64,000 bases of DNA. Source: Giardia intestinalis. Taxonomy: Eukaryota. A program made the translations under genes and the position numbers. The stretch lies in the NCBI GenBank assembly GCA_000002435.2, contig CM018790.1; one strand, 5' to 3'. Shown here one piece after another: positions 11,106 through 54,062 of the stretch. The notes under the pieces are model-generated. The model saw nothing but the letters and a program-made list of their open reading frames with translations, searched no databases and was not told where the DNA came from. Each line of letters begins with the position of its first letter. The first letter of the stretch is position 1.

Positions 11106-12131
11106 TTACTTTGCTTCCTTTGTATTAAGAGTTAGCGCCTGCGTTACCACAGTCTCAATCATCAAGGACACCCCGTAGAAGCGATCCTCTTGCGAGTATT
11201 TGCGCCTTATGTATCTGGCCTTCGGGTTACAAGCGTATTTCTTCATGATCGTAGAAATCTCCGCCATAACCTTTTTTGTATCGCTCTCAGTGTATCCAGA
11301 ATACTTTTCGAGGGTTTCGTCCCAAGTCGGCTTCCGAGTCAATCTACGGGACATCGCAATGCAGCCTGCCGCAATCTCGCTAGGCTTAAATTTGAAGATA
11401 CTTGTCGTCAGACACGAGAGTTCAGAGATATAAAATGCAATGTAACGGTCTCGATTCTTCATTTCCGAAATTCTGGCATACCTTCGTAGGAATGTGAGAA
11501 TTGTGGGCATAGCCAGCTGGAAATCCAGCGTATGCAGGATAGATTCTTCCGTATCTATTATAGCTTCGCGACTGCACCTGTAGCACGGTCCCGAACGGTT
11601 ACCCTCGCACTTACAATTGACGAGGAATTCCGGGTCGACCTGGGTCAGCGCCTCCACAAAATGCCTAAGTGAAGGAATATAGCTTTGCTCGTACTTTGCT
11701 GCAATGAAAAGACAGCAAATGCCAACAAGTCTGTTAGAGGCCTTGGGTACTACCACGCGAGAAAGATAACTGTCAAAAATCGCTATGCAATGAAAGAAGC
11801 TCTCGTTGGCCAAATTGAAGCGTGTGTGACACCTAGAGATCCAGTCAACAAGTAGCGTGCGGTCCTCTGCATCAAAGTCTATCTGGTTCGACAAAAAGTC
11901 CGAACCAAGCATGTACTTACCCTCAGACTGAAGTAGGTACTCATATATCTCTCTTACGTATTCTGCGCACGCCTGGATATCATCCTTATCAATCAAATCG
12001 ATGTCGAGAATGTCCGTTTCTTTATCGGGGTTGGCGTGCCTGAAGTTAATCAAGGCCTGTGGCATCTCCTCGACATTGTCTACCGGCTGCTCGAATGTGT
12101 GAACGCTCTGGGATTCGTCGTCTAATGGCAT
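11106..12131 (-). CDS. A/B-type (mitotic) cyclin, 341 aa
   Basis: Cyclin box with RTLLVDWISRCHTRFNLANESFFHCIAIFDSYLS...NRLVGICCLFIAAKYEQSYIPSLRHF, matching the consensus MRxILVDWLVEV...ETLxLAVxxxDRFL...LQLVGxxxLxIAxKYEE. A second fold includes EESILHTLDFQL. The N-terminus has no obvious RxxL destruction box. Confidence 0.85.
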   Translation of the reverse strand: MPLDDESQSVHTFEQPVDNVEEMPQALINFRHANPDKETDILDIDLIDKDDIQACAEYVREIYEYLLQSEGKYMLGSDFLSNQIDFDAEDRTLLVDWISRCHTRFNLANESFFHCIAIFDSYLSRVVVPKASNRLVGICCLFIAAKYEQSYIPSLRHFVEALTQVDPEFLVNCKCEGNRSGPCYRCSREAIIDTEESILHTLDFQLAMPTILTFLRRYARISEMKNRDRYIAFYISELSCLTTSIFKFKPSEIAAGCIAMSRRLTRKPTWDETLEKYSGYTESDTKKVMAEISTIMKKYACNPKARYIRRKYSQEDRFYGVSLMIETVVTQALTLNTKEAK

Positions 12132-12315: not shown

Positions 12316-12792
12316 ATGGAAAACCGTTTACGAAATGAGTATCGAAACGTCAACAAAATGAAGGATGCGCTAGCCAAGGAGGGAATAACCATATTTCCTA
12401 CGGCCAGTGACAACCTTTCTGCTTGGACCATTTCTATTCTAACGAAAGATAAGGACTCCCCCTATTCGGGTCAGACGCACACAATCTCTGTCAAGATACC
12501 CAGAGACTACCCCCTTTCTCCGCCCGAGTGCAACTTCACGACACCCATGTTCCACCCTAACGTGAAGTTTGCGAACGGTGAGATCTGTCTCAACATCCTC
12601 ACAAAGGACGACTGGTCTCCGGCAATTTCCCTTATCTCTCTTGCACAAAGCATTGCAGGCCTTTGCAGTGCCCCAAACACAGACAGCCCTCTCAATTGTG
12701 ACGCCTCCAATCTCGTTAAGAACGGTGACGTCCGGGCCGTCCGGTGCATCTGCCAGTATTACTACAAGGGGGAGTACACCAAGGTCAAGTAG
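12316..12792 (+). CDS. ubiquitin-conjugating enzyme E2 (UBC fold), 158 aa
   Basis: Canonical UBC active site HPNVKFANGEICLNILTKDDWSPAISL, matching HPN[IV]..G.ICLDIL...WSP with the catalytic Cys. A/T-rich start (aaccaataaaaagttATG). Stop TAG at 12790-12792 is followed by AGTAAAT at 12801-12807. Confidence 0.9.
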   Translation: MENRLRNEYRNVNKMKDALAKEGITIFPTASDNLSAWTISILTKDKDSPYSGQTHTISVKIPRDYPLSPPECNFTTPMFHPNVKFANGEICLNILTKDDWSPAISLISLAQSIAGLCSAPNTDSPLNCDASNLVKNGDVRAVRCICQYYYKGEYTKVK

Positions 12793-12874
12793 GCCCGGGC
12801 AGTAAATTTGTCGAGATACATGCCTCGGCCGCGCGTCCCCCTGGCGCCCCGCCTCGCAGAGCTCTATGCCGCAG
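12736..12874 (+). repeat. Copy A of a 139-bp perfect inverted repeat, covering the last 19 codons of the E2 gene plus 82 bp of 3' flank including AGTAAAT
   Basis: By eye, base-for-base identical to the reverse complement of 53923-54062. Confidence 0.85.
12801..12807 (+). promoter_or_regulatory. AGTAAAT polyadenylation-signal motif of the E2 gene
   Basis: Consensus AGTRAAY lies 9 nt after the stop codon. Confidence 0.55.
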
Positions 12875-12924: not shown

Positions 12925-15900
12925 TTAAACCGCGGCACTACCATCGGATCCTTCCTCTAGCTCTGCCAGTCCCATGGCCTCGTTTGCGTTACGACCGCGG
13001 AAGTTTGCATAAGATATGAGTGCTATGGCAGACCTTTCCCGCCTGCCTCGTCGCTTCGTGGGTATATCGAGAGGATGCTTGGGCTTCTTGTTCTTACAAC
13101 AGAACCGCCACGAGAGGAACCCAATGAGACCTGCAAGCACGCTGAGGACAAGAACTCCGACGACAATTGGAACGTAGGGTTGAATGGCTGTTCTTGCTAC
13201 GTCGGCCTCGCATGCAAAACTGTCCTTTAGTGTGTAACCTGGATAGCATCTACAGACAGGTACTCTCCCATTATCCGAGAGACAACGGCCATGTCCACTG
13301 CAGACCAGGTTAACGCCACCCGTAGTGGATATGCAGTCTTTGTGGACGCATATGCTATCAACGGTGCTCTGATAGTTGTCATTGCATGTACAAACGCCCC
13401 CTTTGACCACCGTACATCGGCCGTTACCGTTGCACACCGTCCCAAGAGTAAGGCACCCTAGGGGGTAGCATACCGTGCCTGACGGCCCCCAGTAGGAATC
13501 GCAGATGCAGTAACCCTTATCTCCTTCCTCTTCAACACACCTGCCAGCCCCGTTGCAAACAACGTCTTCAAAGCCCGGCTCGGAACTGAAGCAATCTTTG
13601 ACATAGCAGGTTCTGGAGCTTCTGTCCCTTGTGTACCCACTCGAACAATTCTCACACTTTTCCCCGTAGTGGCCATTCTTACAGACACACTTCTTCTCTG
13701 CAGAACATACCCCTCCGCTGTGACAAACAGTTTCTGCCCCGTCCGATTCTTGCGTAATGCACTCCGTTGCCACACACGGATACACGACGCCTCGGAAGGT
13801 GATTGTCTTATATCCAGACTTGCATGTGCAGAAATAGCTATCGCCAGACCTTGTACAGCTTCCGTTGCCTCCGCATTCCTCGTACTTATTAAAGTCAATG
13901 AGGCCAGCACACTCCTTAGGAATGCATCTTCCGGTAAAGAGCTGGACAGCAACATCTTTATCACAAGAGCAATAAGACTTATTGCCCACTAGATCCATAA
14001 CGCATGTACCAAACTCATGTCCTCCGCAAACAGTGTCGACGTCGTGACCATTGGCAGACCTTGGGAAGACGCACTCCTGTGGAGCACACTGTCTGCCGAT
14101 TTGCCTGTACTTATTGTCTGTCGTATTTATACATTTGCATATATATCCATTCAGCGCAGTGTTTGGAAGCTCAGAAACTACACAGGAGGCAACAGTCGGG
14201 CCTCCACACACAGACTGGACTGTATGCAAACCGCTTGCTACAGGGACAATGCAGCGCGGGCTGGCACACGTTCCATTGACTGCAAAGTAGCCGATATCAC
14301 AAACACACTTTCCATGCACGCATTCACCGACACCACCACAGATCAGAGGATTCTGATCAACGTAATTGATGCAATCTTCTTGGACGCACGTGCTCTTAAG
14401 GACCCCTGTGATGTCGCGAAGCGTTACTTCGGTAGTGTTGTCTGTGCAGCTACACCTCCTTTCAGAAAGGGGGGTTCCAGCCTGGCCAAAGCAAGTGCCG
14501 AATCCTCCGCACACCTTTGGCTCAGCGAGAGTCGAGTGCACATAGATGCACTTCCTCGGGACACATTGCTCTCCTGTGCTCACAGCGAGAAAGCCTTCGG
14601 AACAAGCACATCCAAACCTCTGCTGCTCCGGTTTGTACACGCAGCCGGCCAGAGCGTCTCCTCCGCAGTACACGTTGTCGCGAAGACAATCTTGGTGGAT
14701 GCATCTCTTATTGAGCAGCGTGAATGGCCCTGAGCAGGCGCATTCGTGGCCACCACCGGCACTCTTCATGCGACACTCGACGAACGGCGAAAGAGCCCCG
14801 CACTCAGAGTATTGCAATTTGCCTCCAACGTACGTCAGAACAGCGCACCCTGTGTGGGTGCAGTAGCCTCCGTAGCTTTCGGTTTCGTCGGGACACTTAC
14901 AGCCATAAGAGTTAGTGGTCTCAGTGTATATGCACGACCCTATTCCAGAACATACGTGGCTCAGTCTGTATTCCCCAGGAATATGATTGCTTGGCAGGCA
15001 ATTCACGCTATAGCAGAAACCGCCTATCTTCACAAAGTTCTTGGAACATATGCACGCGTTTGTTGTAGCATCCAAAGCGCCAGCTCCTGGGCCACCACAA
15101 AATCCTATTGATCTGTGTGCACTTTCATCGGCATACGCAGTCGATAGGACACATGTAGAGACGTAGGTTGTGAGCAGGCCGCTGCATTGGCAACTCCAGT
15201 CGCCGCTTTCCCTCAACAAGCAGCTTTCGCTTCTATTTGTAGCCACATCGTTTGTGACACAATACGTATTGGGCACTATGCTAGGGCCAGCTAAAGTCTT
15301 CTTTAACATGCAAGAGTCTGCGACACAACGCTTACTTGCCGTATCCCATCTTGCCTCGCTGCCACAGTCACAATGGTAGTTTGAGGCACTAGCCTCCTTT
15401 ACGCAATCTCCTATTCCTCCACAATAATTATCTTGCTCACGACCGCTTGAGTTGTCGTGGCAGTCCTTGTGAATGCACGTTGTCTTACCCTTGTTGGGGC
15501 CCGAGGTAAATGTTACAGTGTGGAAGTTGTCCTGACAGGTACACACCTTTCCTGAGGCACCAGATTTGTCTGAACATTTTGGTGCACCACTAGACTCTAT
15601 ACCATCAGAAAGGCCATCATGTAGTCCACAGTAAAAGACCCTAGTCTTATTTATTTGACTGACGTGGGTGCACTCCTCATCAGCGAGGTATGTGTTATTG
15701 TATGCAATTACCCTTGTTGATGTGTCTGACACACACGTAATATATGGGGCGGTTGAGTCGCCAAACACGGTATACTTTGCGTTCTGACAAACACCAGACA
15801 TATCCCCAGTGTTGGCGGGCGTCGGTGATTGTGTAATACAGCTCTTGGCAATGCATTGACTACCTATCATCTCGGCAGTGGGGTTACTTCCCTTTGTATT

Positions 15901-17280
15901 GCATTCAGAGCAGTTTTCTCCAGTGTATATGTGTGAGCATGAGCATAGGAAGCTTGATACTCCACCAACCATGGCTACTTTAAGAACACCATTGTCACTG
16001 CAAACAGCTCCATTAGCAATCAGCTTACTGGGCACACAGCGTCCTGGATATATGTACGTATAGCCTTGTTCGCAGATACACGCACTTTGACTTGTGAGGC
16101 TATTCGAGCATGCGCCATAGCCAGAGCAAATAGTGCCAAAGTGCTCATCAATACAGTCACGCAACACACACTCGCCATGCCTCTCAATAAACGAGTCTGG
16201 ACAGCGGCAGTGATAAGTCCCTTCATACTTAACACACGGGCCACCATTCTTACATATTGACCCATCACTTGACACACAAGTTAGAGGAACACAGCGATTT
16301 TCCACCACCTGCGAGGCCCCCAGTATGCACTTCTCACAAAGAGAGCCGGCTGCAACATCGCCACAATCACAGGAGTAGGACCTGCCATTTCTCTTACAGA
16401 TACCAACTCCGCCGCACACGGTCATAGCTTTGCTATCAGTGCACCCAACGGGGGCGCACTCTCCGTTGATGCTGACCATGTCGGCATCACATTCACATCG
16501 ATACAGGCCAGTTGTCATGACGCATTTGCCAAACCCTCCGCAGATAATCGGAATACCAGAGTGATACGCTACACAACTTGTCGGCACGCACGACTGGCCC
16601 ACATGCGTGCAGTCCTTGTTGCACGCACATCTGAAGTTGTAGTCTCTGCCAGTAGAACCCACGTCTGGTACGCACTCTCCCTTCCCAGAACAGATCTGCC
16701 CGCTTTCATCTATACACGATCGAGGAACACACTTCAGCTCGTCTTTAGTGGATAGGTCAACGGCTGCTGCCTCATTGCACGCAGCGCAAAACTTCCCACT
16801 GTACAGAGAGTAGCACGAACACAAGTAATCATCCGAAGTGGCTATGTGTGCTTTGCCAACATCTTTTAGAACACATCGGCCGCGCCCGTTACAAGGGACA
16901 TTGGAGCTGTGAAGGAGAGTCCCTTGTTCGTAGCAATTCTTCGAGGTGCAAACTCCTTCAAAAGAAACAAACCCTTCTGGACATTGCTCACAGCGGTACG
17001 CACCGTCATAATGAGAGCATTTCATAGAATCATTGCATTCTTTTCCATTGATGAGACAACGATGACTGACCGCAATCTCTAAATTCCCACCCGAAGAGTC
17101 AGCCCCGGTTCGAAGTATCCGGAAACCAGGCTTTGCAGCGTCACAGGCGCTCCCAGACCATCCGCGTTGGCACTGGCAGAAAAGAGATCCGTCTGTCTGC
17201 ACACAATTCCCATGGACACACTCTCTCCCCACTCCACAACTGGCAGATAAGGATAGAGTCAACGTCGTTACCAGAATCAT
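12925..17280 (-). CDS. high-cysteine membrane protein (VSP-like, EGF-like, CxxC/CxC-rich), 1451 aa, type I topology
   Basis: N-terminal signal peptide MILVTTLTLSLSASC. There are dozens of CxxC, CxC and CGG[x]G[x]C modules, for example CGGFGKC, CGGVGIC, CGGIGDC and CGGVGEC. A single C-terminal TM helix, IVVGVLVLSVLAGLIGFLSW, is followed by a basic ~60-aa cytoplasmic tail. The tail is not the CRGKA ending of true VSPs. Confidence 0.85.
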   Translation of the reverse strand: MILVTTLTLSLSASCGVGRECVHGNCVQTDGSLFCQCQRGWSGSACDAAKPGFRILRTGADSSGGNLEIAVSHRCLINGKECNDSMKCSHYDGAYRCEQCPEGFVSFEGVCTSKNCYEQGTLLHSSNVPCNGRGRCVLKDVGKAHIATSDDYLCSCYSLYSGKFCAACNEAAAVDLSTKDELKCVPRSCIDESGQICSGKGECVPDVGSTGRDYNFRCACNKDCTHVGQSCVPTSCVAYHSGIPIICGGFGKCVMTTGLYRCECDADMVSINGECAPVGCTDSKAMTVCGGVGICKRNGRSYSCDCGDVAAGSLCEKCILGASQVVENRCVPLTCVSSDGSICKNGGPCVKYEGTYHCRCPDSFIERHGECVLRDCIDEHFGTICSGYGACSNSLTSQSACICEQGYTYIYPGRCVPSKLIANGAVCSDNGVLKVAMVGGVSSFLCSCSHIYTGENCSECNTKGSNPTAEMIGSQCIAKSCITQSPTPANTGDMSGVCQNAKYTVFGDSTAPYITCVSDTSTRVIAYNNTYLADEECTHVSQINKTRVFYCGLHDGLSDGIESSGAPKCSDKSGASGKVCTCQDNFHTVTFTSGPNKGKTTCIHKDCHDNSSGREQDNYCGGIGDCVKEASASNYHCDCGSEARWDTASKRCVADSCMLKKTLAGPSIVPNTYCVTNDVATNRSESCLLRESGDWSCQCSGLLTTYVSTCVLSTAYADESAHRSIGFCGGPGAGALDATTNACICSKNFVKIGGFCYSVNCLPSNHIPGEYRLSHVCSGIGSCIYTETTNSYGCKCPDETESYGGYCTHTGCAVLTYVGGKLQYSECGALSPFVECRMKSAGGGHECACSGPFTLLNKRCIHQDCLRDNVYCGGDALAGCVYKPEQQRFGCACSEGFLAVSTGEQCVPRKCIYVHSTLAEPKVCGGFGTCFGQAGTPLSERRCSCTDNTTEVTLRDITGVLKSTCVQEDCINYVDQNPLICGGVGECVHGKCVCDIGYFAVNGTCASPRCIVPVASGLHTVQSVCGGPTVASCVVSELPNTALNGYICKCINTTDNKYRQIGRQCAPQECVFPRSANGHDVDTVCGGHEFGTCVMDLVGNKSYCSCDKDVAVQLFTGRCIPKECAGLIDFNKYEECGGNGSCTRSGDSYFCTCKSGYKTITFRGVVYPCVATECITQESDGAETVCHSGGVCSAEKKCVCKNGHYGEKCENCSSGYTRDRSSRTCYVKDCFSSEPGFEDVVCNGAGRCVEEEGDKGYCICDSYWGPSGTVCYPLGCLTLGTVCNGNGRCTVVKGGVCTCNDNYQSTVDSICVHKDCISTTGGVNLVCSGHGRCLSDNGRVPVCRCYPGYTLKDSFACEADVARTAIQPYVPIVVGVLVLSVLAGLIGFLSWRFCCKNKKPKHPLDIPTKRRGRRERSAIALISYANFRGRNANEAMGLAELEEGSDGSAAV

Positions 17281-17429: not shown

Positions 17430-20400
17430 TCATGGCAAATTATAGTGGCTAAATGCTGACGGAGGCAGGTCAAAACAGTGTGCCAAAATGCGAGATATGC
17501 TTCCCAAAGCATTGATCTTCATTTCCGTTTCGGTTTTTCCTTCGGGAAGTGAAAGAACGTGTCTGACTATCGCCTCTGTCAGGGGTGAGCTATACCGTTT
17601 TGTCAGTGTCTCTCTATCTATTTGCGATAGAGACTGGATTTGTAGGGCGCGGATAACTTCCAGCAATATGAGCGCAGCGGGTACCTCATACATTGGCCCA
17701 GAGGCCACCAGGACTGTAAGGATCCTCACAGCCTCGTCTGTGTGTAAGGAGCGAACTCCTTCTTTCAGCAGGCTCTGGGTAGAAACCTCGACAAGGTGCC
17801 GAGCAGTGGGCAGTTGAGTGCGTAGCTTGCTCTTTCTTTCCAAGAAGTCGTCGGGAAGGTTCGAGAGAGACTCGACTGCAAGTAGCGCAGTGACAACACC
17901 TTGGAAAGCAGTGTTATAGAGAACGTCAATGAAGTCCCCAAAGAGCTCCATAAAAGAAAGCTCACACTTCGCTCGAAGAAAGATAATTCGCAAGATCTCC
18001 ACGGAATAGATGACACTACGCAGGAACACCTCGTTATGAGACGGAGATGGACCCCACAGATATAAGATAGGATGGTTCAGCGGAAGCACCTTCTGGCTTT
18101 CAGGGGAAGTATTGATTGGCAGGTTAAGCCTGTCTTTAGGGTTCACAAGGGCCGTGAATGCATCAATACAGGTGCACATCTCTATTATGTAGGTGTACTC
18201 ATCGTCATAGTAGTACACATCACGAATGCAACGCGAGACGACCTCTTCTGATAACAGCGACGCAGAGTAGCTAGTGCTAGGGAACTCAATCCTCTGGACA
18301 TTGCACTGTATCTCAGAATTATCTGGGTCAGAAGAAAAGCCTTGAATCAGCGAAATGTATTGAGCGTTCAGTTTTGGAGCCGAAGGGTGGCTTTGGAGCA
18401 GCTCGTGCACTATTGCATAGGCATCGTCTTGGATCCTCTCAAATGTATTAGTATACACCTTCTCATACTGTAAGCACTTGTTTGGCATCAGCGTTGGATG
18501 AATATGGCCATTGGTTTGCGCATAGACCTTCCAGGACACAGAGTGAGATCGTCTAGCACCGGAGAAATCACTCACGGTGATAGCGAGTGTGTGCGTAACA
18601 ATATTGAAGAGAAGACGAGACAGAAGCCTTTTGCGCTCCTTATTACCAACTGTCTTTCTCGATATATGAACAACCGTGCTTGTGATGGCCTTTGGAACGC
18701 TTTCGGTCTCCGTCAGCGATAGACTAGAGCGGCCCTGAAGCATCTCTATCTTCCCATCCTGCTCCAACCAAAGAAGAAGCGAGCGCACCACGCGTATAAG
18801 GGAGTTGAAGTACTGTTTTCCAGTAGGTGGAAAGTGGGAAGCCAAGCGGTGACAGGAGCCGAGGAGAAAGAATCCTGAATAGAGTAGGGTGCGGATATCT
18901 AGAAGTAGGAGACTCGCAATGACCTTTCCTATGGTTACAATGGTTAGACGGCCGTGACTCTTACCCATTGGCGTACACATACTGACAGGTGCGTGATGTT
19001 CTAATATCAGATATGTATAAAATGCCACAATGCACTGCTGCATCAGCACGTTTCGAGACTTCTCCAACGCCTCCCAAGCGGTGTTGATTGACGTTTCCCG
19101 AACCAGAATTGCTGAGTTGACCAGAAGACAGAGCAAATGGTCGACAGCTTTTATTTCATTGAAGTGTGTGCTTAGTAAGAAGTTAAAGTGATTAGTATAA
19201 TAAAATCTATCCCTTGGCGAGGCATTTGTCAGGAGCCTCGACGTTGCAATTCCATCATTTTCGACCCCGTCAACGCTGGTGGGTAGCTTGTACTTGCTTT
19301 GAAGGGTTGAAGAAATAAAAGAGACGAATCTGTCAATGATGTACCTGAGTAAGGGCAACTGCGCATATATTGCAGGCGAGATGACGTGCGTAAGAACGGA
19401 GTCGCGTGCTTCAATAGATTTGATGCTGTATATGTTGAAACACAGAGGATTCGGTAAGTCTAGCTCCGGTAGCGTGTGTGTCATGTTGACGCTGATGCTG
19501 CTAGGGCAAGTGAGGTCCATAGATTGCTGCTTGGTATTGGTGGAAGAGGCCTGCCCTTCACAGACAGTGCCCATTGTGGATGACGTCTTATCATCCACGA
19601 AAACAACATCAGCAAGGGCTCTACTTTTACGGGCGCCTTTTGCCGGAATATTTGACTCAGAGCCGGCAAAGTAACCTGATTGAGGAACAACCGGCTTTCG
19701 GCTGATGCTATTATTTCGTTTCTGGGGGTTCACGCAGGGGGGACTGCTACCGGCATAGTTCAGGGGCAAGGAGCAATCTAGCGCTAACACACAAGCGGAA
19801 AGAATTAGGCGATTAATGAACTCACTGTCCAGATATCTGAAGCCGAGGACCTTATAAATCTCTACACAAAGGTCTTGACGCTGTACCTTATTGGTGTTTT
19901 GCCTATCCAACTTACGTGTGTCAATGATGTACTCCAATAGCTTATCTATTTTATTGCTAAACTCGGTACGTTGATATTCCACTATTTTGGTGTGCAGCAA
20001 ATCTGTGCTCGTAAGACCGTGCTGAATGAGAAATGATAGAGCATGCCGGCGAGCGTCCTTAGCCGCCGGTGCCTGAGGATCCTGCTGCACACCGTTGTAC
20101 AGCAATGAGTAGAGGGCTGGGAGAGACGCTGCGTTAGCCGTGGACACAAACTGCAGCGCGTTAGTCATAAATGCATCTTGATCGAGAAGATAATCACTCA
20201 CCACAGAGGCAGGAAGCTGACTGTGAAGATTGACATAGAGTAGCTGACTAATCATCTTCCTTGTTTCGATGTCGTCACTTTCATCCGCTTGATAATCTTG
20301 GATCTTGATCGATTGATTGCTTGAGGGGTTCCCGGAAAGAACACTGTGTGTGTCCGCAATAGCTGAGCTTCCCAGGCCCTTTGGGTCCATATAAATGAGT

Positions 20401-23400
20401 GAAGCCAGTTGCATGGAGTGGTGATCTTGAGGTGCGTAAGTGGCCAAGTTTTCGGTCTGTGAACCAAGAGAGGGTGATACAAGGTTATCACGCGTCAAAC
20501 TTACCCCGAGCTCATGCAGATTTTGTACCATTGTAGTTGCAGACAGTGGGCAATCACAAATGACAGTGTTCGAAGAGAAAGGAAATAGGGGACGTTGGGA
20601 TATCTGAGTCCAGTGAGATCCAGACTCACTTAGGTCAACAGAACCGTCGGTGATATCAGGTAGCTCTGGAGAAAGAAGGATAGAATGAGAGGGCTTATCC
20701 TGGGCATCAGCCTCAAAGGTCATACCCTCGGAACGCTTTACAATGAAGTATGGAGACGTGGGGCTCACCAATACCATCGCAGGTGATATAAAAAGAAAGA
20801 CTATGGATTCAACTATATAACCTAAACAGGCGTTATCCCAAGAATGCCCAGTTTCACCGTCGTGGCATTTCCGAGACAGGTGCACATAGGTATCAAAGCT
20901 GGATGCAGAGTCGCAGTTCAGTGAAGCATTAGACCCAGCAAAAGCACCCCAGCGAGAGCATGTCGCATCAACGCCGTAACTATCTTGCTTGTCGTTCCAA
21001 AGGTCTGGCAGTCGCCGTCCGCACACCTTAAGTTGTTTGTATTTTTTCTTAGGAAAGTGGTTGATGGGTAATCCCAGGCCTGTCGCCCTAGAATCAGTGA
21101 GGTATTCTAGAGAGTCGTAAGTCTCCCTGTAAGAGTCTTTGTATTCGGTGCTAAGAGCGTTAGCAAAAAAATCTTTCGCAGCATAGCATAAGGAATATTG
21201 CACAGGATAAGTCGTGAAGATCAGTGGGGATTGGGACAAGGTGCTCCTAATACCCAAGTATCTGGGGCTGTATATTGAGATGTAGCGTCTTAATTCCTTG
21301 AATATGCTCTTGGAGTAGTTTTTCGAGAGTACTTTGAAGATCCGAAAGAAAATATCAGCGGATATCTCAATCATGGCGTCATATGCTGTGAGAAAATTGT
21401 TGTCTTCATCGACCTCTGAGACCTCTGCGGTAAACTTAGGGATGTTACTGATAATGTTGACGGGAAGACTGTCCTGTGATAGCTGCAGGCCCGACGTATC
21501 TCCAGAAGTGAAGAGCTGCCCAAGTGTTTCAACAGCGGTCCTGCAAAGCGCTTGGCGATGGGCAGAAAAATCAGGGAGCCAATCTGTGGATGTTATGCCC
21601 AAGAGGCGACGCATTGTGGGCTTCATTAGCTCTCCCTGGGAAAACGATAGATGAGCCTCAATAAGCAGAAAGTCAGCGGACAAATTCTTCGTAAATCTAT
21701 CGTTAAGCTTCCACTGACCCAGATTGTTAAGGTGTACATCTTTAGCAACCGCAGAGCTGATTGCGCTATAGACCTTGGAAAACTCGCTCCGACGCTCGGT
21801 GAAGCGCACTAGGGTGTTATAGTGGTTGCTCTTGATGCAAAGAGAAAACAGCCGTGTGATGATTGGGACTATGTAAAACTTGTTGATGTTTGAACTAAAC
21901 GACTGGACAAGGTCAGGCATATTATTCGCTAGCTTTAACAGTTCTGTTAGAAAGATGACTGATAGCTCATAGTTCTGACGAGGCTTAACACCGGCGTCTT
22001 CGGTGTACTCAAGGAGGACCTGGGGGACTTGCGTGTTCATATCAGTAGTGTGTGCACGCACTGGTGCTGTCTCAGAGAAGTATCTATAAAAGATAGAAGC
22101 ATAGCAAAGGCTGGGGGTAATCGGTCTGTTGCATATCATTGCTAAGAAGTTGCCTGTTTCCCCATAGACATCTGCCAGTTTTATTAGAAAGAAATCAGAA
22201 TTGAACTTAGCGCAGATTTCACGGAGAGGAAGCATCAGTAGGTTCTTTTGAAGGGATATGCTCTGGATGCTTCCCGTTATGATCTTAAGTAGTCCCGGTG
22301 CCATGAAAGCGGCTCTGTGCACTATGTTGGAGCAGAACTTTTTAAAGAATTGGGAGTATAGCCCTTCAGACAGAGAGCTGGTCTGAGTGGCGCCGAGCGA
22401 GAAGGACGTTGAAGACTGAAGCATGCGAGACTTTAAGATCTTGGCCCATTGATGTGTTAGGCTGTTATTCTGGCCACGGGTCATCAGAAGTGCCAGGTAC
22501 TGACCTATATCTTTGTACAGGAATGATGGCGACTGCATTAGAATAACAACAAGGATCCAAAGCACGCAGATACTAGAGTAAGAGAGCTGAGAGGATCTGC
22601 TAAAATTCATAATACTACTGCAAAACTTGTGTGGCTCAAACGCCCTCTTCTCTAGTTCACGATAGACAGTCATATTACAATGGGCCGAAAAGAGCTTTTG
22701 GAAAATAGCCAAATCATCAAAGAAGCACGTTACCCTCACCTCGTCTCCTTGCTTGGATAACTTGGAAGATGAGGCTTGTTTCTGTGTGGATGCCGATAAA
22801 GGAGAGTGTCGTGTTTCTAAGGCGTGGGCCGATTTCGCTCCAGCTTCTAGTGCCACAGTACTTGTTCCTTCCTCGGTCATAGCAACGCCCAGAAAGTTTG
22901 AAATTACTCGGCGATGGGTTCTCAGTTTAGATTTCTGTCCTTGGATTTGGGAAGAAACAGACGGCATTTCAGCGCGTTTGGCAAAACTCTGTTCAGCTAT
23001 AAGGAGAGCTGATGGATCGTTATGAAGCCCAGAAGTAGACAGCTGCGTTGAATCGCAGTGTGATTGTACGCTATAATTACGATCATTCTGGCTATCGGCC
23101 GATGGGCCTGGTGTTCTGGTTGAAAGGACCAACCTTCTGAGATCACCCATCTGACACTCCAAGAGGACGCTAGGATTCTTAAATGCAGGACACGTGTCGC
23201 TTCCAAGGGAAGAAGCCAGTCCCAGCAGAAGAATCGTACACGTCATGCTGTCTGCTAACTTGCTGATTCTGGAAACCTGGCAGCTCAGGTTCTGCTGCTG
23301 TTGCGCATTGGTAGATTCAAGTCGCATGGAGTATGCCTGCTCCTCGTGAGAGTTGGTTTCTTCTGAGACGGTGCAGCTTTCTTGATCATGGTCGTTCCCT

Positions 23401-26400
23401 ACTGACATCACCACAGTGGTGGTTGATTCATCTAAAGTAAGATCGACTGGCTGCGATGTCCTGGTGAGACCATCTTCAGGGGCCTGAACCTCCGCCCCAA
23501 GAAAGACAGAGCCAGTATCATTTTTGAAAGAACCCCGCACTGTCTGATTAATTGGGCTATCAAACAAAGACGGAGATGAATCCTGCGAAGTCTTTTGCGG
23601 CATATAATGCGACATGAAGTAGCTCAGTGTGCTGTACTGTGCACATTTCTCGCTTTCCTCCCTGGTGCCAATATTGTAGTAACCGTTGGAGGAGATGAAG
23701 GGAGACAGATTTCCTACGGTGTTGAGCTTGCTGAGGATGTAATTTAGAATGGTCTTGATGGAGTCTATCAAACGAAGCGAAGAAATGAAGCAAGTAACGT
23801 GCTCAATTAGATATGAAAGTTTCAGATTAAAAGCAACGTGGTCGCTCTTAGCGCTGCACATAGAGATCATCATAGAGTCAAGGGCCTCCCAAGATCTTAG
23901 CTGGTCAGCCTTGAGATTATCTTGATTGTGAATATCGTAGTAGTTGGTAGAGCCAAGAGCGTGCGTTGACATGGTCATCTCACCTCTGAGACTGCTAGGT
24001 CGCAGTCCGGCTTCATGGGAAGGACCCTTTTGAGAAGTCAGTAGGATCGCATCAGTAGTTGTAGGATATCTCAAGGGATTTGATTCCGGTATTTTCTCAA
24101 AATAATGATAGATGTTCCTAATAGCCTGATTGAGTTCAGCAAGAAAGACAGTTAGTTTGGCATCAGGTGAGGCTTTGTACAATGACGGGGTGGATTCTAG
24201 ATAATTGAAAAGTGTTTCTGACTCTTCAAAGAGCAGATCAACCGCTGCGTTGGTATTCTTAATTATAGACTCAGGTGTATCTGTGCCGGGAGACACAGAC
24301 CTTGAATTAGATTCCAGGGCCTGCTGAGAGTCGGAATTACTAGATGATGTGTTAAGGACGCTATCTGATGTAGTAGAGTCCTGCTCTGCCGCGTCTATGA
24401 GGTTGCGGTGCTCGTAGATAGAGTGGAGAGGCTGATGTGTAGCAAAGCTGTGATCCACGTGATCCCTGAAGTAGCGGCAAAATCCGAAGACGTTGTACGC
24501 CATATACAAGTCCATTAGGAGCCCGTTGGAGACGACATAAATATCAGGTGAGCACTGCTTATAAAGAGAGGCCTTCTGCGCTTCGATGAATGCATTATAG
24601 ATGGTCTCTCTTCTGTGGACTAGGTCTGCGAGGGGCTTGGTCGATGCAACCAACCGTCTTGGGAGGAGCCGAAGGTGTGTCTTGCTTTCGTCTTGAGGAA
24701 GCTCCTGGTCCAGGATTTGCTTTAGAAGGTTACCATGAAAGACTCTCCTTTCAGTAGAGAGCTTATGATGAAGGAGATATGAGTTAGAGAACTGGAGCAG
24801 AAGCGACTGGGTGTTTAGTTTGGTTAGTAGGAACGAGACAGACTCTTGTGCCCGAAGTGCATTGTCAATGGTCGTTTTTAGTCGCGTCATTAATTCTATG
24901 ACATATTGAATAGAGTGAATGTCTACAATAAGGGTTCTGTTTTCACTGGGAGATGAGCTGATTAGCTTGATAGAGTCCTCAATGACGGCCGTCAAGCGTT
25001 CATGTATAGTTTTAACAATGTGTAAAAAATCCTTTCTACATAAAAAGCGTAAGGTGTAGGCCGCACGTTTCTTGAAGGCAAGGTATGAGAAGGGCTTTTC
25101 CCTCGTTGTCATTAGATTGAAAAATTCAGTCTTTGAAGGTGTGCTCTGTAATTCAGCCGCATCAAATGCGCGCAGAAGCTGGGCAGTTAAACGGGGCATA
25201 AACGAGAGGCTAGGATCCACGACGTTGTAGTCTAGAAGGGGAGATAAAAAAGATGAATCGCATGCAGAGTGCTTGTCCTGTTGAGCATATGTTCTACAGA
25301 TTGTGGAGATGACACAGCTCCTAATGGTGCTATCACTGATTGGATCGTCGGCCTGTATACCCTCCGTCCCCAACTCATCAAACAATTCATCAAACTGGGA
25401 GATGAAAAGAGGAACTGCTACCCACAACGATAGAATGCGCTCTAATACAAGGAGTAGGGGAATTGCCAACTTACGTTCTATGAGCTTATAAGGCTCCATG
25501 AGCTCGGTAACCATAAAAGCTATGATGCAGTAAAATATGGTTGGTGAGCCAAAGGTCTTCAAGTAGAGAACGAAGTTAGTGAGTGGGAGTTGAGTCTTTC
25601 CTTGTGAGATCTGGTCCTTAGAAATTATGGTGGATACTGTTCTAAGGGCACCCAAGCTATTCTGAGTCACTCTTGTCGAAAGCGGGCAAGAAGCTTCCAC
25701 AAATGGAATGTGGGCCAATAACGGAGAGAGATCCAACTTAGTTCTTTCAAACAAGGGAGTTACCATTGGAGCGGGTTGGTAAATGTTAGCAGAGGACGTT
25801 TTAGAGTTCAAGGGCTCGTCCTTCTGCAAGGACGGGGTCAATCTATTATTGATTACCAGTAACTCAGTTATAAAATCTGCTTCTCCTTTACAAAGGATGG
25901 GCGTTGAAGGCTCTAGATGGTTGTTGAGCTCAGGGGGCATTTCTGATATGCATCGCCTTGCAATCTCTTCTGATGTGAGGCTAAAGTTAGCGTCCAGAGA
26001 TGGCTGAATGGTCCAAGCAGCTAGAAGCAACAGCTCTGGTGTAATGAGGCTACCATACATTTGCAGAATACTCGAGGAACAATCTGGCAGTGACCCAAAG
26101 TCTCCCGGGATGGAAGTATTGTTGCTGGTTCGGGTAATGGGTAACTTTCCAGAAGCAGTTGGGATGTTGCCGTGATCTGATAGTGTACGGTGATGCATGA
26201 CTGTCTTTTCCCCAAAAGATGCGTTGGGAAAAACGGAGATCGGTACAGTTGTATGTTGCGAGTGCAGAGCGCTGGCAGCCGATTGCTCCGGGACAGATTC
26301 AATGGGACGGGTAGCTAGGACAGTGGCACGAGTTGAAGGTTTTTCAAGTGCGCTGGCAAAGTGGTCTGTTATATAGTTCAGCATGATCTCATCATAAGGG

Positions 26401-29400
26401 GTGCTACACAAAGAAGACATGTCAAGCGTTGCAAACAAAGGATTCAGGGGTTTAATGTCCAGGGTATGAGCCAGGGCATCTACGGGATGAGTGAAGAGGG
26501 TTGCGAGCGGATTCAGTGAAGCGGCAAGAGTGTTCTGTATAACAGTGCCGGCATCATCTTCTGACTTGGAAAAAGAGGAAAGAAGCCTGGTGCAAGCCAT
26601 TTCCAAACTCTCTAAGAACGCAGACCCAGAGGCAGTGCGACTGCAACTCAAGGCCTGCATCAATGATGACTTTATCTGCTTAAATACGTCGATGGCATCG
26701 GTTGGAGAGTGTATTTTCGCAGTAGTTAAAGGACAATTTGCTATACTGGTAGAAGTGCTGCTGAAGTCGGAGTGTAAGGTCTTGAAAAAGTACACAGATA
26801 GAAGCTCATGATAGTCTAGAGTTCTTAGCTGATTGGCCATGTATAAGACGTGTTTATGATACTCTAATTCATGGAAGTTGAGATAGTCCAGGGCAATGCC
26901 TTTAGGGCAATAAAGACAAGATAGTGCAAAGTGGTCTATCCCCAGGAAGCCATGCACACTAGTACTGGTATCAGTCGGCAACATGCATAGCATGGTGCTG
27001 TGTAGAGATAAAAACATCCCATAGGCCTGTAGCGGAAAATAGGTGACAAATGCTCGCGCATGTAATTTGTCCAGTACAGACCAGACGAGCTGGCGAAGTA
27101 TCTCCGCTCCCTTCAAGGTTAGCTGCGCAGTTCTGAAGAATCTCATTAGGTGAGCTACTCCTTTAAAGTCGCGCGATAATAACCTTGTGTGCAGATGCTC
27201 AGGGCTAGTGTTAACGGTCTCCATCTCCTCTAATGCCCTGTAGGCCCTGATATAGTCGTCCATGAAGTACTCGAAAATGGGCTGATACCGGTAGTGGTTA
27301 GATGTTTGGGTCTGATGTTGAGGAGATGGTAGAAATTTTCGTGTGCTCAGCTGTTGATCTGGCCCCGGCTTCATATAGGAATCTACGGGCATTACGGAGT
27401 TGTTGGGTAGTGATCGCAAAGAGTCGTAAATAACGATGCGGATCTGACGCAGAAACTTGAGAATATAATGTGCCTGATACGGAATTGTGACGAGGTAGAG
27501 ACAGAGTGCGCCCTCTAGAAAACCAAGAGCTTGTAGTATTTGGTCATTGGAGCAAAGCATAAACAGGTTTCTTGTTATGAGGGCTTCAAGCTTTGTCAGG
27601 AGTGCCTTCAGCTTTATCGCGAAGTAAAGAAATCGGTCGCTATACCGTTTTGGAGTTACCAAGATCCGTTTCCCCACCACATGAAACATAGGCACATTGG
27701 ACAAGGGATCGATAGATTGGTCAAAAAATAGGTATGGTTGGTGTGAGAGGACAGGCACAAGAATGTCGGTGTATTGTGGCGTGGTAGCCGGAAAGGGAGG
27801 GGAGAGTAGGGGAGGGCAGGGTGTATCGTTATTATCAACAACAATTAAACTGGTATACATGTCTCTTGGATTGTTGGCAGTTACATTTCCGACGCTTATC
27901 CGCTGCACCTCGTGAAGCCCCGATGTGCTGTCCATTCCGTACGCATTACTCAGCTCAGGCTCGAGATCAGTTGTAACGGGGTCATGAGGGGATACTGCAT
28001 TGCCCCCCGTAGCAAACTCAGTAGGGTTGTACTGTGAAAAGGACCGTACAGAGGGGCACTCACGGCTCAAATCTGGAGCATCAGAAGCATCATGATTCGA
28101 TGATTTGGAAGACGGATTTGTTCCATTTGAGGCCATAGCTGCCCGAGAAGTGTCAGTCTTAAACAAGTAGGCGTTAGAATGACTCGGTATTTGAAGCGCA
28201 TGTTCATGCTCATTCGTATTCGTATTCGGCCACATCATCTTCATAAAAGCATCCTGTTCATCTTTGATGAGCTGGTGAATAAGATATAGATAGGACGACC
28301 GCATCGTCATAAGAATAAGAAGGGCAGTATCAATGAGAAGGCATATCTTGCGGGGAAGAGAGGGAGCTTCCTGGTCAATCTGAATCAAGGCCTGTTCAGC
28401 GTCAGTGACTGCAAATCCATCGTTGCTGACCAAATCACTCAAAAGCCGAATCTTTCCTTCCTTGTGCTTTTCAAACCAAAAGATGTACTCTATGCAATCA
28501 ATGAATGCAGAATGAGTTATGTAGGAAAAGTTTGTGCTCCGTGGACCACAGAGATGATCGTCGGGCCTGGAGGCTAAGGGTGCACTTGCCTTGTTGCGTG
28601 CCTTGATATACTCATCAAAATAATATACACCTTCATACGTATCAGTACTAGGAAGTGAGTCGTCCTGAACTGTGTATTCAGTGCTGCCAGAAAGCATATA
28701 GTGCGCAACAGAGGACACTTGGTGGCCATTATAGTATCCATTGGTGATCGTAATCTGTCGCCTAAACCGCATCATGTACCCGGTAAGGCCCGGCAAAATG
28801 ATCTCCTCCAGGACCTTCAGATTGAAGCAGCGCCGCGTGTAGAAGAAGAGAATAACATTTAGGTTTTGGGGAGAAAGAAGATACACCCTTATGAGCCTGT
28901 AGAGATGTGGGTCTATATATGGCGGGAGAAAATAAAGAGGTGACGTCCGCTCCTGTTTGTAGTAGGACGACACGGCAATCATAATAAGAAGATATATCCG
29001 AGTGCCACTAATATTAGCGTCTCCAAGGGCACCACTATCAAGGTTAGAGCTGGAGCTGGAGCTGGAGGAGGCAATGGCTTTCTCAATGCGCTTAGTTGCC
29101 TTGTTGATTGCATGCCGCAGCTCAAAAAGTCTCTCAGTTGAGCCAGTTCCCTCAGGAATCCTCGTTCCACTCGAGTCGTGGTCGCCATGTCCAAATCCAG
29201 TGGCGGGTACTGCACCGCTCGAACTGCCTGAAAGAGCGGCTCCAGGGGGCTCGTCGAGCAGAAGCTCAGGGTAGATGACATCTCTCATGACATAGGGAAC
29301 ACAGTTCGAGATTTGCAGTTCTTTGCAGAGAAGGTACGAGCTCAATCTACGAGGAAGCAAGGAGAAGAAGCATCGAATGAAGCATAGGGATTCCTGGGTT

Positions 29401-35422: not shown

Positions 35423-36178
35423 TTAATTACATATTCTATTGAACGTGAGGCCATAGTTAACCTTATTCGGATATGAGACGCGCTTCATGCAGCCCGGGTC
35501 TCCATGGACAGAAGATCCGCAACAAGACCATTGTTGTTCGCTTGTTACAGGATTACACTTAAATACGCCAGTATGGAAGCGCTCTACTTCCGTTTTCTCG
35601 CGAAAAGCATGGACATACGTTTTCTCCGTCCCTGGAGATATGTAGGATGGCTTGCTGGAGACATAAGGTTTTCTTGCAAATCCCGGGAGTTCAACCATTT
35701 GGGAACTTTGTCCCGTAGAACTGGATCTCAGTTGTGAGCGTGTCTTCGTGCAACTTGGTTGTTCTCGGACGCTGGGGCCTTTGTAGCCTTCCGCTCCTAT
35801 GTATGCCAGAGTGTCCATGCGATCTACAAGCATCTCGGCAAGCTCTTCATTATAGTATCCACGTCTGTAATACGACGGTCCATAATGAGAGCGTACGTTC
35901 CTGTTGCGTCTGCTTGTATTCGCAAGGCTATTCCGGAGGGTTTCGTGATAGATTACCTTGTTAAGCTCCTCATCTGGGGTCATTGAAAGATTCATGAGAT
36001 CCGTGCGATAGGTGTCTGTGCTCTTAGTGGTGGGGAATCCATCCTTAGTTAGAGGAAGGGGAGAGCGATAGTCGAAATCTGCCAAGCTGTCTATAGTAGT
36101 ATGCCGCTGGAGAGACCGCTCGCGCCTATCGAAGCACGGGGCCTCCCGTATCCCCTGAGGGTTGAAGATGCTGTTCAT
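35423..36178 (-). CDS. hypothetical protein, 251 aa
   Basis: Longest ORF in this interval. It diverges from the gene at 36261 across an A/T-rich 82-bp spacer. No recognisable domain. Confidence 0.45.
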   Translation of the reverse strand: MNSIFNPQGIREAPCFDRRERSLQRHTTIDSLADFDYRSPLPLTKDGFPTTKSTDTYRTDLMNLSMTPDEELNKVIYHETLRNSLANTSRRNRNVRSHYGPSYYRRGYYNEELAEMLVDRMDTLAYIGAEGYKGPSVREQPSCTKTRSQLRSSSTGQSSQMVELPGFARKPYVSSKPSYISPGTEKTYVHAFREKTEVERFHTGVFKCNPVTSEQQWSCCGSSVHGDPGCMKRVSYPNKVNYGLTFNRICN

Positions 36179-49524: not shown

Positions 49525-50910
49525 ATGTCTCAGCAGTTCATTCTCGTGGTGGGGGACATCAACATCCCGACAAAAGCCTTCCAAATCCCCATTCAGTTCC
49601 GGGAAATCTTCCACCCCAGGCGCATATCCCATGTGATTCTGACCGGGAACGTTACATCAGCAGGCACTGTCTCGTTTCTCAAGACTATCAAGTCTGATCT
49701 ACACGCAGTTCGAGGACCTTACGATGAGACAAGCTACCCCGACGTGGACACGCGCAACTACTGCGGCTACAACATCTCTGTAATGAATGGAAGCCAATGC
49801 ATGCCGATGGGGGACTCAGCACAGCTTTCTAAGTTTGCAAAGGTATACGACAGCGAGATCATTTGTTCCGGATGTGGCTGGCGCCCGTTCGTTGGAATGG
49901 TTGATAACGTTCTGGTGGTTAAGCCCGGGAGCCTGACTGGCAGTATTAAGGAACATGAGCCCGGTTACGCCGATGACTCATCTTACTGCTTTAGCCAGAG
50001 CTCACAACCAGGAGAGGATGCAAGCTCTCTTACGGACTCTGATGGAATGAAGACATATGTGCCTAACCCATCGAAGGTTTATCCATATGTTCGCTATACC
50101 AGCGAACCGTCGTTTGTCCTACTGGGAGTATCGAAGGGTTCACCACTTGTTAATGTCTTCACATACATCATCCGTGATACCCAGCTGGTTGTCTCATCAT
50201 CGAAGTTTATGGTTCCTAAACTTCATGAACTACCAGAGCCTCAAGTAGAGATGTTTATGCATCACAGATCCTCACAAGAGCAACAGTCACAAGAACCTGT
50301 CGCTTTTGGAGGCCTAGGTAATCCGCCGCAAACAGCACTGCCTCCGTCATCACAGCAGTTTAACCCCTATTCACCTTCTACAATTAATGCACAGATAGGA
50401 GCGCCGTCTCAGGCGTGGCAGGTACCACCGTCCTTCCAAGGTGGAGAGGGTCTGCCGGGCCAGCAGTTTTCTAGTCAGTCATCATGGGCCTCTCAGCAGG
50501 TATCTGCCCCTGCCCCTACCCTAGTGCAGCCTACCCCCATTGCTGCCCCAGTGCAGCCTACCCCCATTGCTGCCCCAGTGCAGCCTACCCCCATTGCTGC
50601 CCCAGTGCAGCCTACCCCCATTGCTGCCCCAGTGCAGCCTGTTGAAGACTCTGCTTCTTCTGTTACTACGTCAGCTGTGTCAGCAGCTCCACCGGCGCCC
50701 ACTAAAGCGAATCCTTATTTGCAAGCTAAGGCGTCTCCTGGCACAAATCCTTACCTTGCTAGCTCTGCTACTAAGCCTGCTAACCCCTATCTTAAGGCAA
50801 CGAATCCTGGCACCTCTCCGACCAGTCCCCCAACAACAAATCCATACCTCAAAATGGCGGGAGGAACGAGTGAAACGTCCCCATATCTTAAGAAGTTTGA
50901 AGATTCTTAG
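49525..50910 (+). CDS. Vps29-like (retromer, calcineurin-like phosphoesterase fold) N-terminal domain with a long Pro/Gln/Ser-rich C-terminal extension containing tandem repeats, 461 aa
   Basis: MSQQFILVVGDINIPTKAFQIPIQFREIFHPRRISHVILTGNV...FLKTIKSDLHAVRGPYDE aligns with human VPS29 [40 protein letters not shown]...YLKTLAGDVHIVRGDFDE. The downstream region NGSQCMPMGD...SEIICSGCG aligns with IHGHQVIPWGD...DILISGHTH but has lost the metal-ligand His residues. The C-terminal half contains (VQPTPIAAP)x4 and NPYL repeats. Confidence 0.65.
   Translation: MSQQFILVVGDINIPTKAFQIPIQFREIFHPRRISHVILTGNVTSAGTVSFLKTIKSDLHAVRGPYDETSYPDVDTRNYCGYNISVMNGSQCMPMGDSAQLSKFAKVYDSEIICSGCGWRPFVGMVDNVLVVKPGSLTGSIKEHEPGYADDSSYCFSQSSQPGEDASSLTDSDGMKTYVPNPSKVYPYVRYTSEPSFVLLGVSKGSPLVNVFTYIIRDTQLVVSSSKFMVPKLHELPEPQVEMFMHHRSSQEQQSQEPVAFGGLGNPPQTALPPSSQQFNPYSPSTINAQIGAPSQAWQVPPSFQGGEGLPGQQFSSQSSWASQQVSAPAPTLVQPTPIAAPVQPTPIAAPVQPTPIAAPVQPTPIAAPVQPVEDSASSVTTSAVSAAPPAPTKANPYLQAKASPGTNPYLASSATKPANPYLKATNPGTSPTSPPTTNPYLKMAGGTSETSPYLKKFEDS
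50524..50640 (+). repeat. perfect 27-bp tandem repeat (gtgcagcctacccccattgctgcccca), 4 copies plus a 9-bp partial, in-frame within the Vps29-like CDS
   Basis: Read directly from the sequence: units at 50524-50550, 50551-50577, 50578-50604 and 50605-50631, with a partial unit at 50632-50640. Encodes VQPTPIAAP x4. Confidence 0.9.
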
Positions 50911-53148: not shown

Positions 53149-53207
53149 ATCGGGTTGTTAACAAATTTTGCCAGCAGAGTGAAATTGGATAACGAAAAAA
53201 CTCGCAA

Positions 53208-53711
53208 TTGATGACAAGCGAACCTACCCAGGAAGTAACCAAATGTGGTCCAAATGAAAAGGACTACTTCCGCATCAGAGCAAAGGTATACCGTTTTGCA
53301 GATGACGAATGGAAGGAGCGTGGTCAAGGTGAGGTCTTGATCGCGGAGGATCCCAAAGAGAAGAAATACAGGCTTCTTCTCCATCGAGATCAGACCCTAA
53401 AGTGCGCAGTGAACCTCCCCTTGATTGAGGGCGTGGCAGTGAAGCCGCTCGGAAACTCTGACAAAGCTGTTACTGTTGCCGGTCTCGACTTTTCAGACAA
53501 CGAGAAGAAACAAACCGTTTTTGCAGTCAAGTTTACCGAGGCATGGATGTGCAAGAACTTTCAAACTGCTGTAGAGCATGCCCTGGCGGGGAAAGAGTTG
53601 ACCGAGGCCGATCTGATCAAAAAGCCTGACTCCGAAGAACCCAAGAATGATAAACCTGCTGAGGCGAAAGCTTCTGAAAAAGATGTTGAAGAAGTGGGTG
53701 ACAAAAAGTGA
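53208..53711 (+). CDS. RanBP1-like Ran-binding-domain protein, 167 aa
   Basis: RanBD signature: RIRAKVYRFADDEWKERGQGEVLIAEDPKEKKYRLLLHRDQTLKCAVNLPL...LKPLGNSDKAVTVAGLDFSD...TVFAVKFTEAWMCKNF. Compare RanBP1 RAKLFRF...EWKERGTGDVKLLKH...RLLMRRDKTLKICANH...L.PNAGSDRAWVW..DF.DE...E.LAIRF. Stop TGA is embedded in AGTGAAC at 53707-53713. Confidence 0.85.
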   Translation: MMTSEPTQEVTKCGPNEKDYFRIRAKVYRFADDEWKERGQGEVLIAEDPKEKKYRLLLHRDQTLKCAVNLPLIEGVAVKPLGNSDKAVTVAGLDFSDNEKKQTVFAVKFTEAWMCKNFQTAVEHALAGKELTEADLIKKPDSEEPKNDKPAEAKASEKDVEEVGDKK

Positions 53712-53922
53712 ACCTAAAGGCTACTGTTTTGAGGGTTTACCCAGGCACTTATTCGCGTCCAGAGCGCAGAGTAGCTCCAGCCACGTTTCCTGTTCAGGGA
53801 CCCAGAGTTTCTAAAGTCATCAAGGTGCTCGTAGACGTGTTGCTCTGTCAGACGAAGAACGAGGAGTGCTTCCTCATACTGGTGGACCAGCGTATCTGCA
53901 AGTTGACGGTGCCGGGGGTGTA

Positions 53923-54062
53923 CTGCGGCATAGAGCTCTGCGAGGCGGGGCGCCAGGGGGACGCGCGGCCGAGGCATGTATCTCGACAAATTTACTGCCC
54001 GGGCCTACTTGACCTTGGTGTACTCCCCCTTGTAGTAATACTGGCAGATGCACCGGACGGCC
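53923..54062 (-). repeat. Copy B, inverted, of the 139-bp perfect repeat of the E2 3' end and flank
   Basis: Reverse complement of 53923-54062 equals 12736-12874. This also explains the otherwise odd conservation of the antisense ORFs 12439-12921(-) and 53708-54121(+). Confidence 0.85.

Follow-up and report, generated by a model that had tools for sequence, protein, structure and literature searches.

Introduction

Arm-to-arm gene conversion is known in the palindromes of the human Y chromosome and in the inverted repeats of plastids. In Drosophila, inverted duplications at inversion breakpoints are accounted for by a staggered-break model. Giardia is a tetraploid, binucleate parasite, and its sexual or recombinational life is still debated. 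In Giardia WB, duplicated VSP genes are arranged in inverted pairs (-> <- or <- ->) (PMC7000408). The poly(A) signal of Giardia is AGURAA, with cleavage expected ~11 nt past the signal and a median 3' UTR of <100 nt, and dual stop/poly(A) signals have been reported (PMC9014877).

Here we describe a short inverted repeat in the window (the whole 64-kb stretch of Giardia DNA that was analyzed), composed of the 3' end of an E2 ubiquitin-conjugating enzyme gene (R) and a distant inverted copy of this end (R'). Similarly to the Y-chromosome palindromes and plastid repeats, there are two inverted copies per molecule, which are near-identical within a genome, diverged between lineages and bounded sharply. 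By contrast to these systems, the arms of R/R' are 123-141 bp in length and not kilobases to megabases, the spacer is ~300 times the arm, R lies in a functional gene while R' is a non-coding fragment, and inversion isomers of R/R' are unproven. The VSP pairs are found in the same organism and are likewise duplicates in inverted orientation; however, they consist of whole genes of a multigene family, whereas R/R' stems from a single-copy housekeeping gene, of which only a 140-bp fragment is duplicated, and its position is conserved across assemblages. The Drosophila breakpoint duplications resemble R/R' in that short inverted duplicates of unique sequence are present at the two ends of a segment, but the segment bounded by R/R' is not inverted compared to assemblages B and E, nor to G. 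muris at the E2 junction. With regard to the AGURAA module (PMC9014877), both copies have AGTAAA and an identical downstream stretch, and the 9-nt spacing of the E2 gene is typical; what differs is that the candidate signal of the gene facing R', which encodes a 2421-aa hypothetical protein, is borrowed from the tail of another gene and lies 152 nt past the stop codon. The literature on Giardia gene conversion and inverted repeats and the supplements of PMC9014877 were searched, and no description of the R/R' element was found. Thus, the conversion mechanism is known, and what is unusual here is the combination of short arms (123-141 bp), a 41-kb spacer, an arm within a housekeeping gene and persistence across assemblages.

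Materials and Methods

Repeats were identified by a repeat search and by BLAST self-comparison of the 64-kb window. The orthologous loci compared were those of isolate DH (A2), with the E2 locus on contig L001 and the RanBP1 locus on L025; of P15 (assemblage E), with the two loci (L026 and L024) on one contig ~40.8 kb apart; and of GS_B (assemblage B), with the two loci (L013 and L023) also on one contig. Several assemblage-B metagenome contigs were included. Differences between copies were tabulated as a matrix for the first 101 nt of the repeat, using R and R' from WB, DH, P15 and assemblage B.

Results and Discussion

Extent and content of the repeat pair. By repeat search and BLAST self-comparison, R and R' were found to form an inverted repeat of 140 nt that is 100% complementary, with a spacing between the arms of 41,048 nt (Table 1). 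A perfect match of this length within 64 kb cannot have arisen by chance. The initial annotation had recorded positions 12736-12874 (139 bp) as identical to the reverse complement of 53923-54062, with the arms 41 kb apart; the distance and the perfect identity were borne out, as no mismatch was detected over the 140 nt in the BLAST alignment, but the E2-side interval had been drawn one base short. The 5' edge of R is the third base of codon 140 of the E2 ORF. From this edge R comprises codons 141-158 (AVRCICQYYYKGEYTKVK), TAG (12790-12792), AGTAAAT (12801-12807) and a further 67 nt. The stop codon and AGTAAAT had been described correctly, whereas the 19 codons and 60 bp given for the remainder are corrected here to 18 sense codons and 67 nt. 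A conserved 17-mer of the repeat, GCAGTAAATTTGTCGAG, occurs in the window only at these two sites, even with up to 3 mismatches allowed, and besides R/R' the window holds a single repeat of at least 30 nt, termed I1.

Table 1. Features of the window that bear on the R/R' repeat pair.
Feature	Coordinates	Strand	Remarks
Cyclin gene	11106..12131	-	
E2 ubiquitin-conjugating enzyme gene	12316..12792	+	158 aa, PF00179; identical to WB XP_001708758.1 / KAE8302336.1
R, source copy	12735..12874	+	E2 gene 3' end; repeat search, BLAST self-comparison
E2 poly(A) signal AGTAAA	12801..12806	+	begins 9 nt past stop codon
HCMP gene (high-cysteine, EGF-like membrane protein)	12925..17280	-	1451 aa; convergent with E2; in DH and P15, not at this position in assemblage B
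4561-aa gene	17430..31115	-	
Kinase gene (longest ORF)	50961..53384	-	
RanBP1 gene	53211..53711	+	166 aa; XP_001708738.1 / KAE8302351.1 (identical protein); convergent with 2421-aa gene
F1 spacer, RanBP1 stop to R'	53712..53922	.	211 nt; continuous coverage in RNA-seq-like contigs
R', derived inverted copy	53923..54062	-	non-coding; in convergent spacer of RanBP1 and 2421-aa gene; same site in DH, P15, GS_B
AGTAAA inside R'	53991..53996	-	first AGTRAA past 2421-aa gene stop, +152
F4 spacer, 2421-aa gene stop to R'	54063..54147	-	85 nt
2421-aa hypothetical gene (bigORF)	54148..61413	-	GS orthologue GL50581_1989; 3' end faces R'
I1 left arm	54427..54908	-	part of 2421-aa gene 3' portion; one mismatch at 54796
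Tyrosine phosphatase gene	61506..63332	-	
I1 right arm	63519..64000	+	truncated inverted copy of 2421-aa gene 3' end (GL50803_16970, 238 aa); runs off window

The two copies and their neighborhoods. The C-terminal peptide encoded by R is retained in the assemblage B E2 protein, with one residue different, and in the E2 protein of a more distant Giardia. Because the E2 C-terminus is conserved in orthologues, the E2 copy (R) was taken to be the native, original one. Within R', the E2 frame lacks a start codon and does not match the frame of the 2421-aa gene (offset, 86 nt). R' is in the same orientation as that gene.

Downstream of E2, assemblage B differs from assemblages A and E. Where A and E have the HCMP gene, the assemblage B contigs L012, L013 and L014 (10478-12620) carry ~2.1 kb of mostly unrelated sequence, in which a remnant-like 90-nt match was detected (L013:11992-12081 to window 14434-14523). 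This replacement also cut the E2-side repeat of assemblage B to 123 nt. On the RanBP1 side, the longest kinase ORF (807 aa) runs ~170 nt over the RanBP1 start (53211-53384), while the kinase calls in Logan, DH and assemblage-B contigs are 747-748 aa and extend to the RanBP1 ATG or fall a few bases short of it; by these shorter calls, kinase and RanBP1 are divergent genes with almost no spacer. Farther out, a 27-bp tandem repeat (PTPIAAPVQ units) is present at 50489-50650 within the gene for a 461-aa Metallophos_2 protein (49525..50910). This gene is 81 nt (3 units) shorter in Logan contigs L003 and L004 than in the window, and its product is 494 aa in DH and 474 aa in assemblage B, which suggests copy-number polymorphism or collapse by the assembler.

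Both copies are real and occupy fixed sites. A 140-bp piece that was collapsed or misplaced during assembly would mimic a repeat pair, and short-read contigs indeed break at the repeat or pass through it inconsistently. Such an origin is nonetheless hardly credible here. Both copies are found with both of their unique flanks in the independent assemblies of DH (AHGT01), GS_B (AHHH01) and P15 (ACVC01). Assemblage-B metagenome contigs also show both loci, and some of these contigs have k141 names that imply a k-mer of 141, longer than the 123-bp repeat of assemblage B. In addition, most Logan contigs that are identical to WB end precisely 30 nt inside the repeat, the behavior expected of a true two-copy repeat. 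The assembly collapse that had been raised as a possibility is thus excluded by the presence of both copies in the assemblies of four isolates (WB, DH, P15 and GS_B) and in several Illumina metagenome contigs. The window itself belongs to Giardia intestinalis assemblage A and is WB-like: DH was 98.3% identical to it, and several Logan short-read contigs were 100% identical.

In WB, DH, P15 and GS_B, and also in the assemblage-B metagenome contigs, the second copy was found to occupy one common site, flanked by RanBP1 and the 2421-aa gene. The 5' boundary of R' (…|GGCCGTCCGG) is identical in assemblages A, E and B, and the 3' boundary agrees between A and E within 1 nt. In assemblage B, the E2-side copy and R' share only 123 nt; R' of this assemblage, however, retains an A/E-like 3' tail that the E2 locus of B has lost. 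The shared site and boundaries, together with this retained tail, indicate that the duplication occurred before assemblages A, B and E separated. A search of the 10 kb on either side of the G. muris E2 gene detected no inverted copy of its tail.

These results bear on the proposal that the duplication is very recent in this strain, with too little time for the copies to diverge. The 100% identity of the copies in the window would be accounted for by this proposal. It is, however, highly improbable, since DH, P15 and assemblage B have a copy at the very same site, lineage-specific sequence is common to both copies, and the A/E-like tail that is gone from the E2 locus of assemblage B is kept in its R'. 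The initial annotation had suggested either a very recent duplication or ongoing gene conversion. The former is refuted by the common site and 5' boundary in assemblages A (WB and DH), E (P15) and B, and the latter is strongly supported by the clustering of copies by lineage and by the common lineage-specific substitutions and indels, as detailed below.

The copies evolve in concert. Over the first 101 nt of the repeat, R and R' were found to differ at 0 positions in WB and in P15, at 0-1 positions in assemblage B and at 1 position in DH (3 over the 140 nt). The three DH differences are either real or due to sequencing errors. By contrast, comparison between lineages over the same 101 nt revealed 8 differences for WB vs P15, 12-13 for WB vs B and 15-16 for P15 vs B. 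In P15, the identity of the copies extends to the 3' boundary (~141 nt; BLAST 143/144 with one flanking base included). A 2-bp insertion after TAG is present in both copies of P15, and a 15-nt indel is present in both copies of assemblage B. The lineage-specific changes are found at synonymous, amino-acid and non-coding sites, the last in the UTR and in the downstream part. Thus, the copies group with others of their lineage rather than with those at the same locus, and this grouping, together with the shared substitutions and indels, argues for recurrent ectopic gene conversion.

The level of constraint was estimated from the sequence surrounding the copies. R' is 90.8% identical between assemblages A and E and 80.6% between A and B; for the unconstrained spacers beside the copies the corresponding values are 76-78% and 53-57% (77.6% and 57% for the F4 spacer). 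Between lineages, the divergence of the non-coding part of R is close to that of the surrounding region, so that constraint does not account for the identity of the copies within a genome. Parallel selection was excluded as the cause of copy identity.

Retroposition would be another route to a second copy, and R' does consist solely of the 3' terminal part of a transcription unit, with the poly(A) signal included. A processed retrocopy of the E2 mRNA 3' end would, however, be expected to stop at the cleavage site. R' instead reaches 67 nt past AGTAAAT, ~55 nt beyond the expected site of cleavage, and no A-tract is present at its end. This extension and the missing A-tract identify R' as a duplicate made at the DNA level, and we give a retrocopy virtually no credence.

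Taken together, the comparisons are best explained by R/R' being an ancient duplicate that is in concerted evolution by ectopic conversion, a reading to which we assign a probability of roughly 0.8 on the basis of comparative sequence data. According to this reading, the terminal 140 bp of the E2 transcription unit would have been duplicated at the DNA level, and the inverted copy, R', would have entered the convergent spacer of RanBP1 and the 2421-aa gene ahead of the divergence of assemblages A, B and E. Recurrent non-crossover ectopic conversion across 41 kb of one chromosome would then have overwritten one copy repeatedly with the other. In this reading, purifying selection acts on the coding part and poly(A) signal of the E2 copy, and conversion would also stop the decay of R'. 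Two points count against this best explanation: arms of 140 bp are short for ectopic conversion to be efficient across 41 kb, and the DH copies differ at three positions.

A second inverted repeat lies close to R'. I1 extends over 482 nt within the window, with 1 mismatch between the WB arms. Its right arm, GL50803_16970, corresponds to the last 238 residues of the 2421-aa protein and reaches at least the stop codon of this copy. Over 192 nt, the P15 arms of I1 differ from each other by 1 mismatch and 1 gap, yet they are only ~90% identical to WB, which points again to concerted evolution. Crossover between the I1 arms would invert 8.6 kb and leave the 2421-aa ORF intact.

Next to the right arm of I1, contigs L027, L028 and L029, from three runs, begin at or near position 63478, two of them directly after an Illumina adapter. 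This suggests a defined transcript 5' end ~146 nt upstream of the phosphatase ATG; a 5' UTR of ~146 nt would be unusually long for Giardia. The motif TGTAAAC is present at 63467 on the + strand, near these contig starts (region 63467-63478).

Gene order and the question of inversion. The copies could also stem from staggered breaks formed when the 41-kb segment was inverted, or be homogenized by crossover in a flip-flop inversion. In both P15 and GS_B, E2 and RanBP1 are on one contig and the neighbors at both loci are as in the window. G. muris likewise has the 4561-aa gene orthologue (-) downstream of E2(+), as in the window. With a gene order equal to that of P15 and GS_B and an E2 junction equal to that of G. 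muris, the segment between the copies has undergone no net inversion. Local rearrangements between the two species are indicated by differences among the G. muris neighbors: Mpp10 and a 198-aa gene are located between E2 and the 4561-aa orthologue (L020; CM016925.1, 1211546-1232007), and the orthologue of the window gene 35423..36178 is upstream of E2.

Several contigs carry the junctions that an inverted segment would create. L002 and L005 link the RanBP1 flank via R to the E2 body at 100% identity, and the assemblage-B metagenome scaffold L037 has the reciprocal junction, in which the spacer of the 2421-aa gene is connected via R to the E2 downstream flank. The nearby I1, in which the 3' end of a gene is likewise repeated in inverted orientation, is also in keeping with inversion. 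Against this stand the match of the window order to P15 and GS_B and the E2/4561-aa adjacency kept in G. muris, and the contigs themselves are doubtful witnesses. The run series of L002 and L005 includes adapter-capped contigs that start at 63478 and cross the I1 arm unbranched. Adapter-capped starts, variable ends and unbranched passage through the two-copy I1 are the behavior of RNA-seq, and in RNA-seq graphs weakly covered branches are pruned, which gives rise to chimeric paths through repeats. The metagenome contigs L036 and L037 are short and also cross the longer I1, a repeat that a short-read assembler is unable to resolve. Thus, the contigs with the wrong flank are most likely transcriptome or low-coverage chimeras, and inversion is an unlikely source of the copies or of their identity.

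The L002/L005 junction had been considered as proof of inversion and was downgraded, as the sister runs behave like RNA-seq.

Poly(A) signals and a possible terminator role of R'. In WB, P15 and the assemblage-B contigs L036 and L037, the first AGTRAA after the 2421-aa gene is found at +152/153, inside R', and no AGTRAA is present between the stop codon and R' in any of these four sequences. The F4 spacer is 84-85 nt in length in WB, P15 and the same two assemblage-B contigs, despite its sequence divergence. RNA-seq-like contigs run 74-115 nt past the stop codon of the 2421-aa gene, two of the three into R', with no poly(A) tract. Near the start of R', at 54074 and 54041, the coverage of two RNA-seq-like contigs falls away.

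Use of the R' AGUAAA by the 2421-aa gene would result in a 3' UTR of ~165-170 nt, and such a borrowed signal could explain the persistence of R' and of the 84-85-nt distance to the stop codon of the 2421-aa gene. On the other side, a 3' UTR of ~165 nt exceeds the Giardia median, and the fading of contig coverage near R' is likewise an argument against a terminator role. As judged from motif position and spacing, R' may tentatively be considered the 3'-end signal of the 2421-aa gene, at odds that do not quite reach even. The terminator function of a "transferable terminator cassette", as the initial annotation had phrased it, is plausible in one respect: in WB, P15 and assemblage B, the AGTAAA of R' is the first canonical signal past the 2421-aa gene. 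Its transferability found no support, in that only two copies were found in the window, in fixed positions and with no sign of mobility. As regards features of a mobile element, the two copies in the window keep to fixed orthologous positions in every lineage and have no terminal structures. Two scans for the conserved R core in JGI metagenome contigs found nothing.

Many genes in the window are without any strict AGTRAA, which also counts against the terminator role of R'. At the RanBP1 locus, AGTGAAC overlaps the stop codon (53707-53713). AGTGAAC or AGTAAAY lies over the stop codons of RanBP1, of the kinase (50961 region) and of a 472-aa gene (47721 region), which matches the dual stop/poly(A) signals reported for Giardia (PMC9014877).

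Transcription through R' from the opposite side was also considered. Read-through of RanBP1 into R' on the + strand would generate 140 nt of RNA that is perfectly antisense to the 3' end of the E2 mRNA, with an effect by pairing or RNAi and with perfect complementarity as the selected property. Giardia has the RNAi machinery that this would call for. RNA-seq-like contigs (L002, L005 and L009-L011) cover RanBP1, the F1 spacer and all of R' continuously. L002 and L005 have no junction to the spacer of the 2421-aa gene (absent or pruned), a structure compatible with entry from the RanBP1 side. However, the AGTGAAC at the RanBP1 stop codon predicts cleavage ~200 nt before R', and covariation of the copies requires gene conversion whatever the function. 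Moreover, R has no special RNA fold on either strand and no Rfam match: the Rfam search of the window yielded no match, and comparison of the R fold to shuffled sequence gave z-scores of +0.35 and -0.94 for the two strands, i.e., no signal. A hidden structured RNA is unlikely based on these two results, and an antisense function of R' is very doubtful.

Conclusions

That R/R' serves as a functional recombination or regulatory device, whether (a) a flip-flop switch or (b) a source of antisense RNA by RanBP1 read-through, is decidedly improbable. If (a) were true, the 41-kb segment would invert in a fraction of nuclei and, with I1, would constitute a nested invertible locus in a eukaryote. If (b) were true, a 140-nt antisense RNA would couple the expression of E2 to that of RanBP1 via the RNAi machinery, and gene conversion would keep the complementarity over millions of years. 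Should the terminator role prove true, a gene can live on a borrowed 3'-end signal, with conversion from the selected copy providing maintenance free of charge.

For ectopic conversion itself, the pair has been fixed in position since before the A/B/E split and yet is identical, or nearly so, in each genome, which points to continuous homology-directed copying. Such copying in Giardia would act between sequences that are short, distant and inverted. The R/R' locus would thereby offer a simple natural reporter for ectopic conversion, and possibly for inversion, that requires two PCR amplicons and for which the DH differences are informative.
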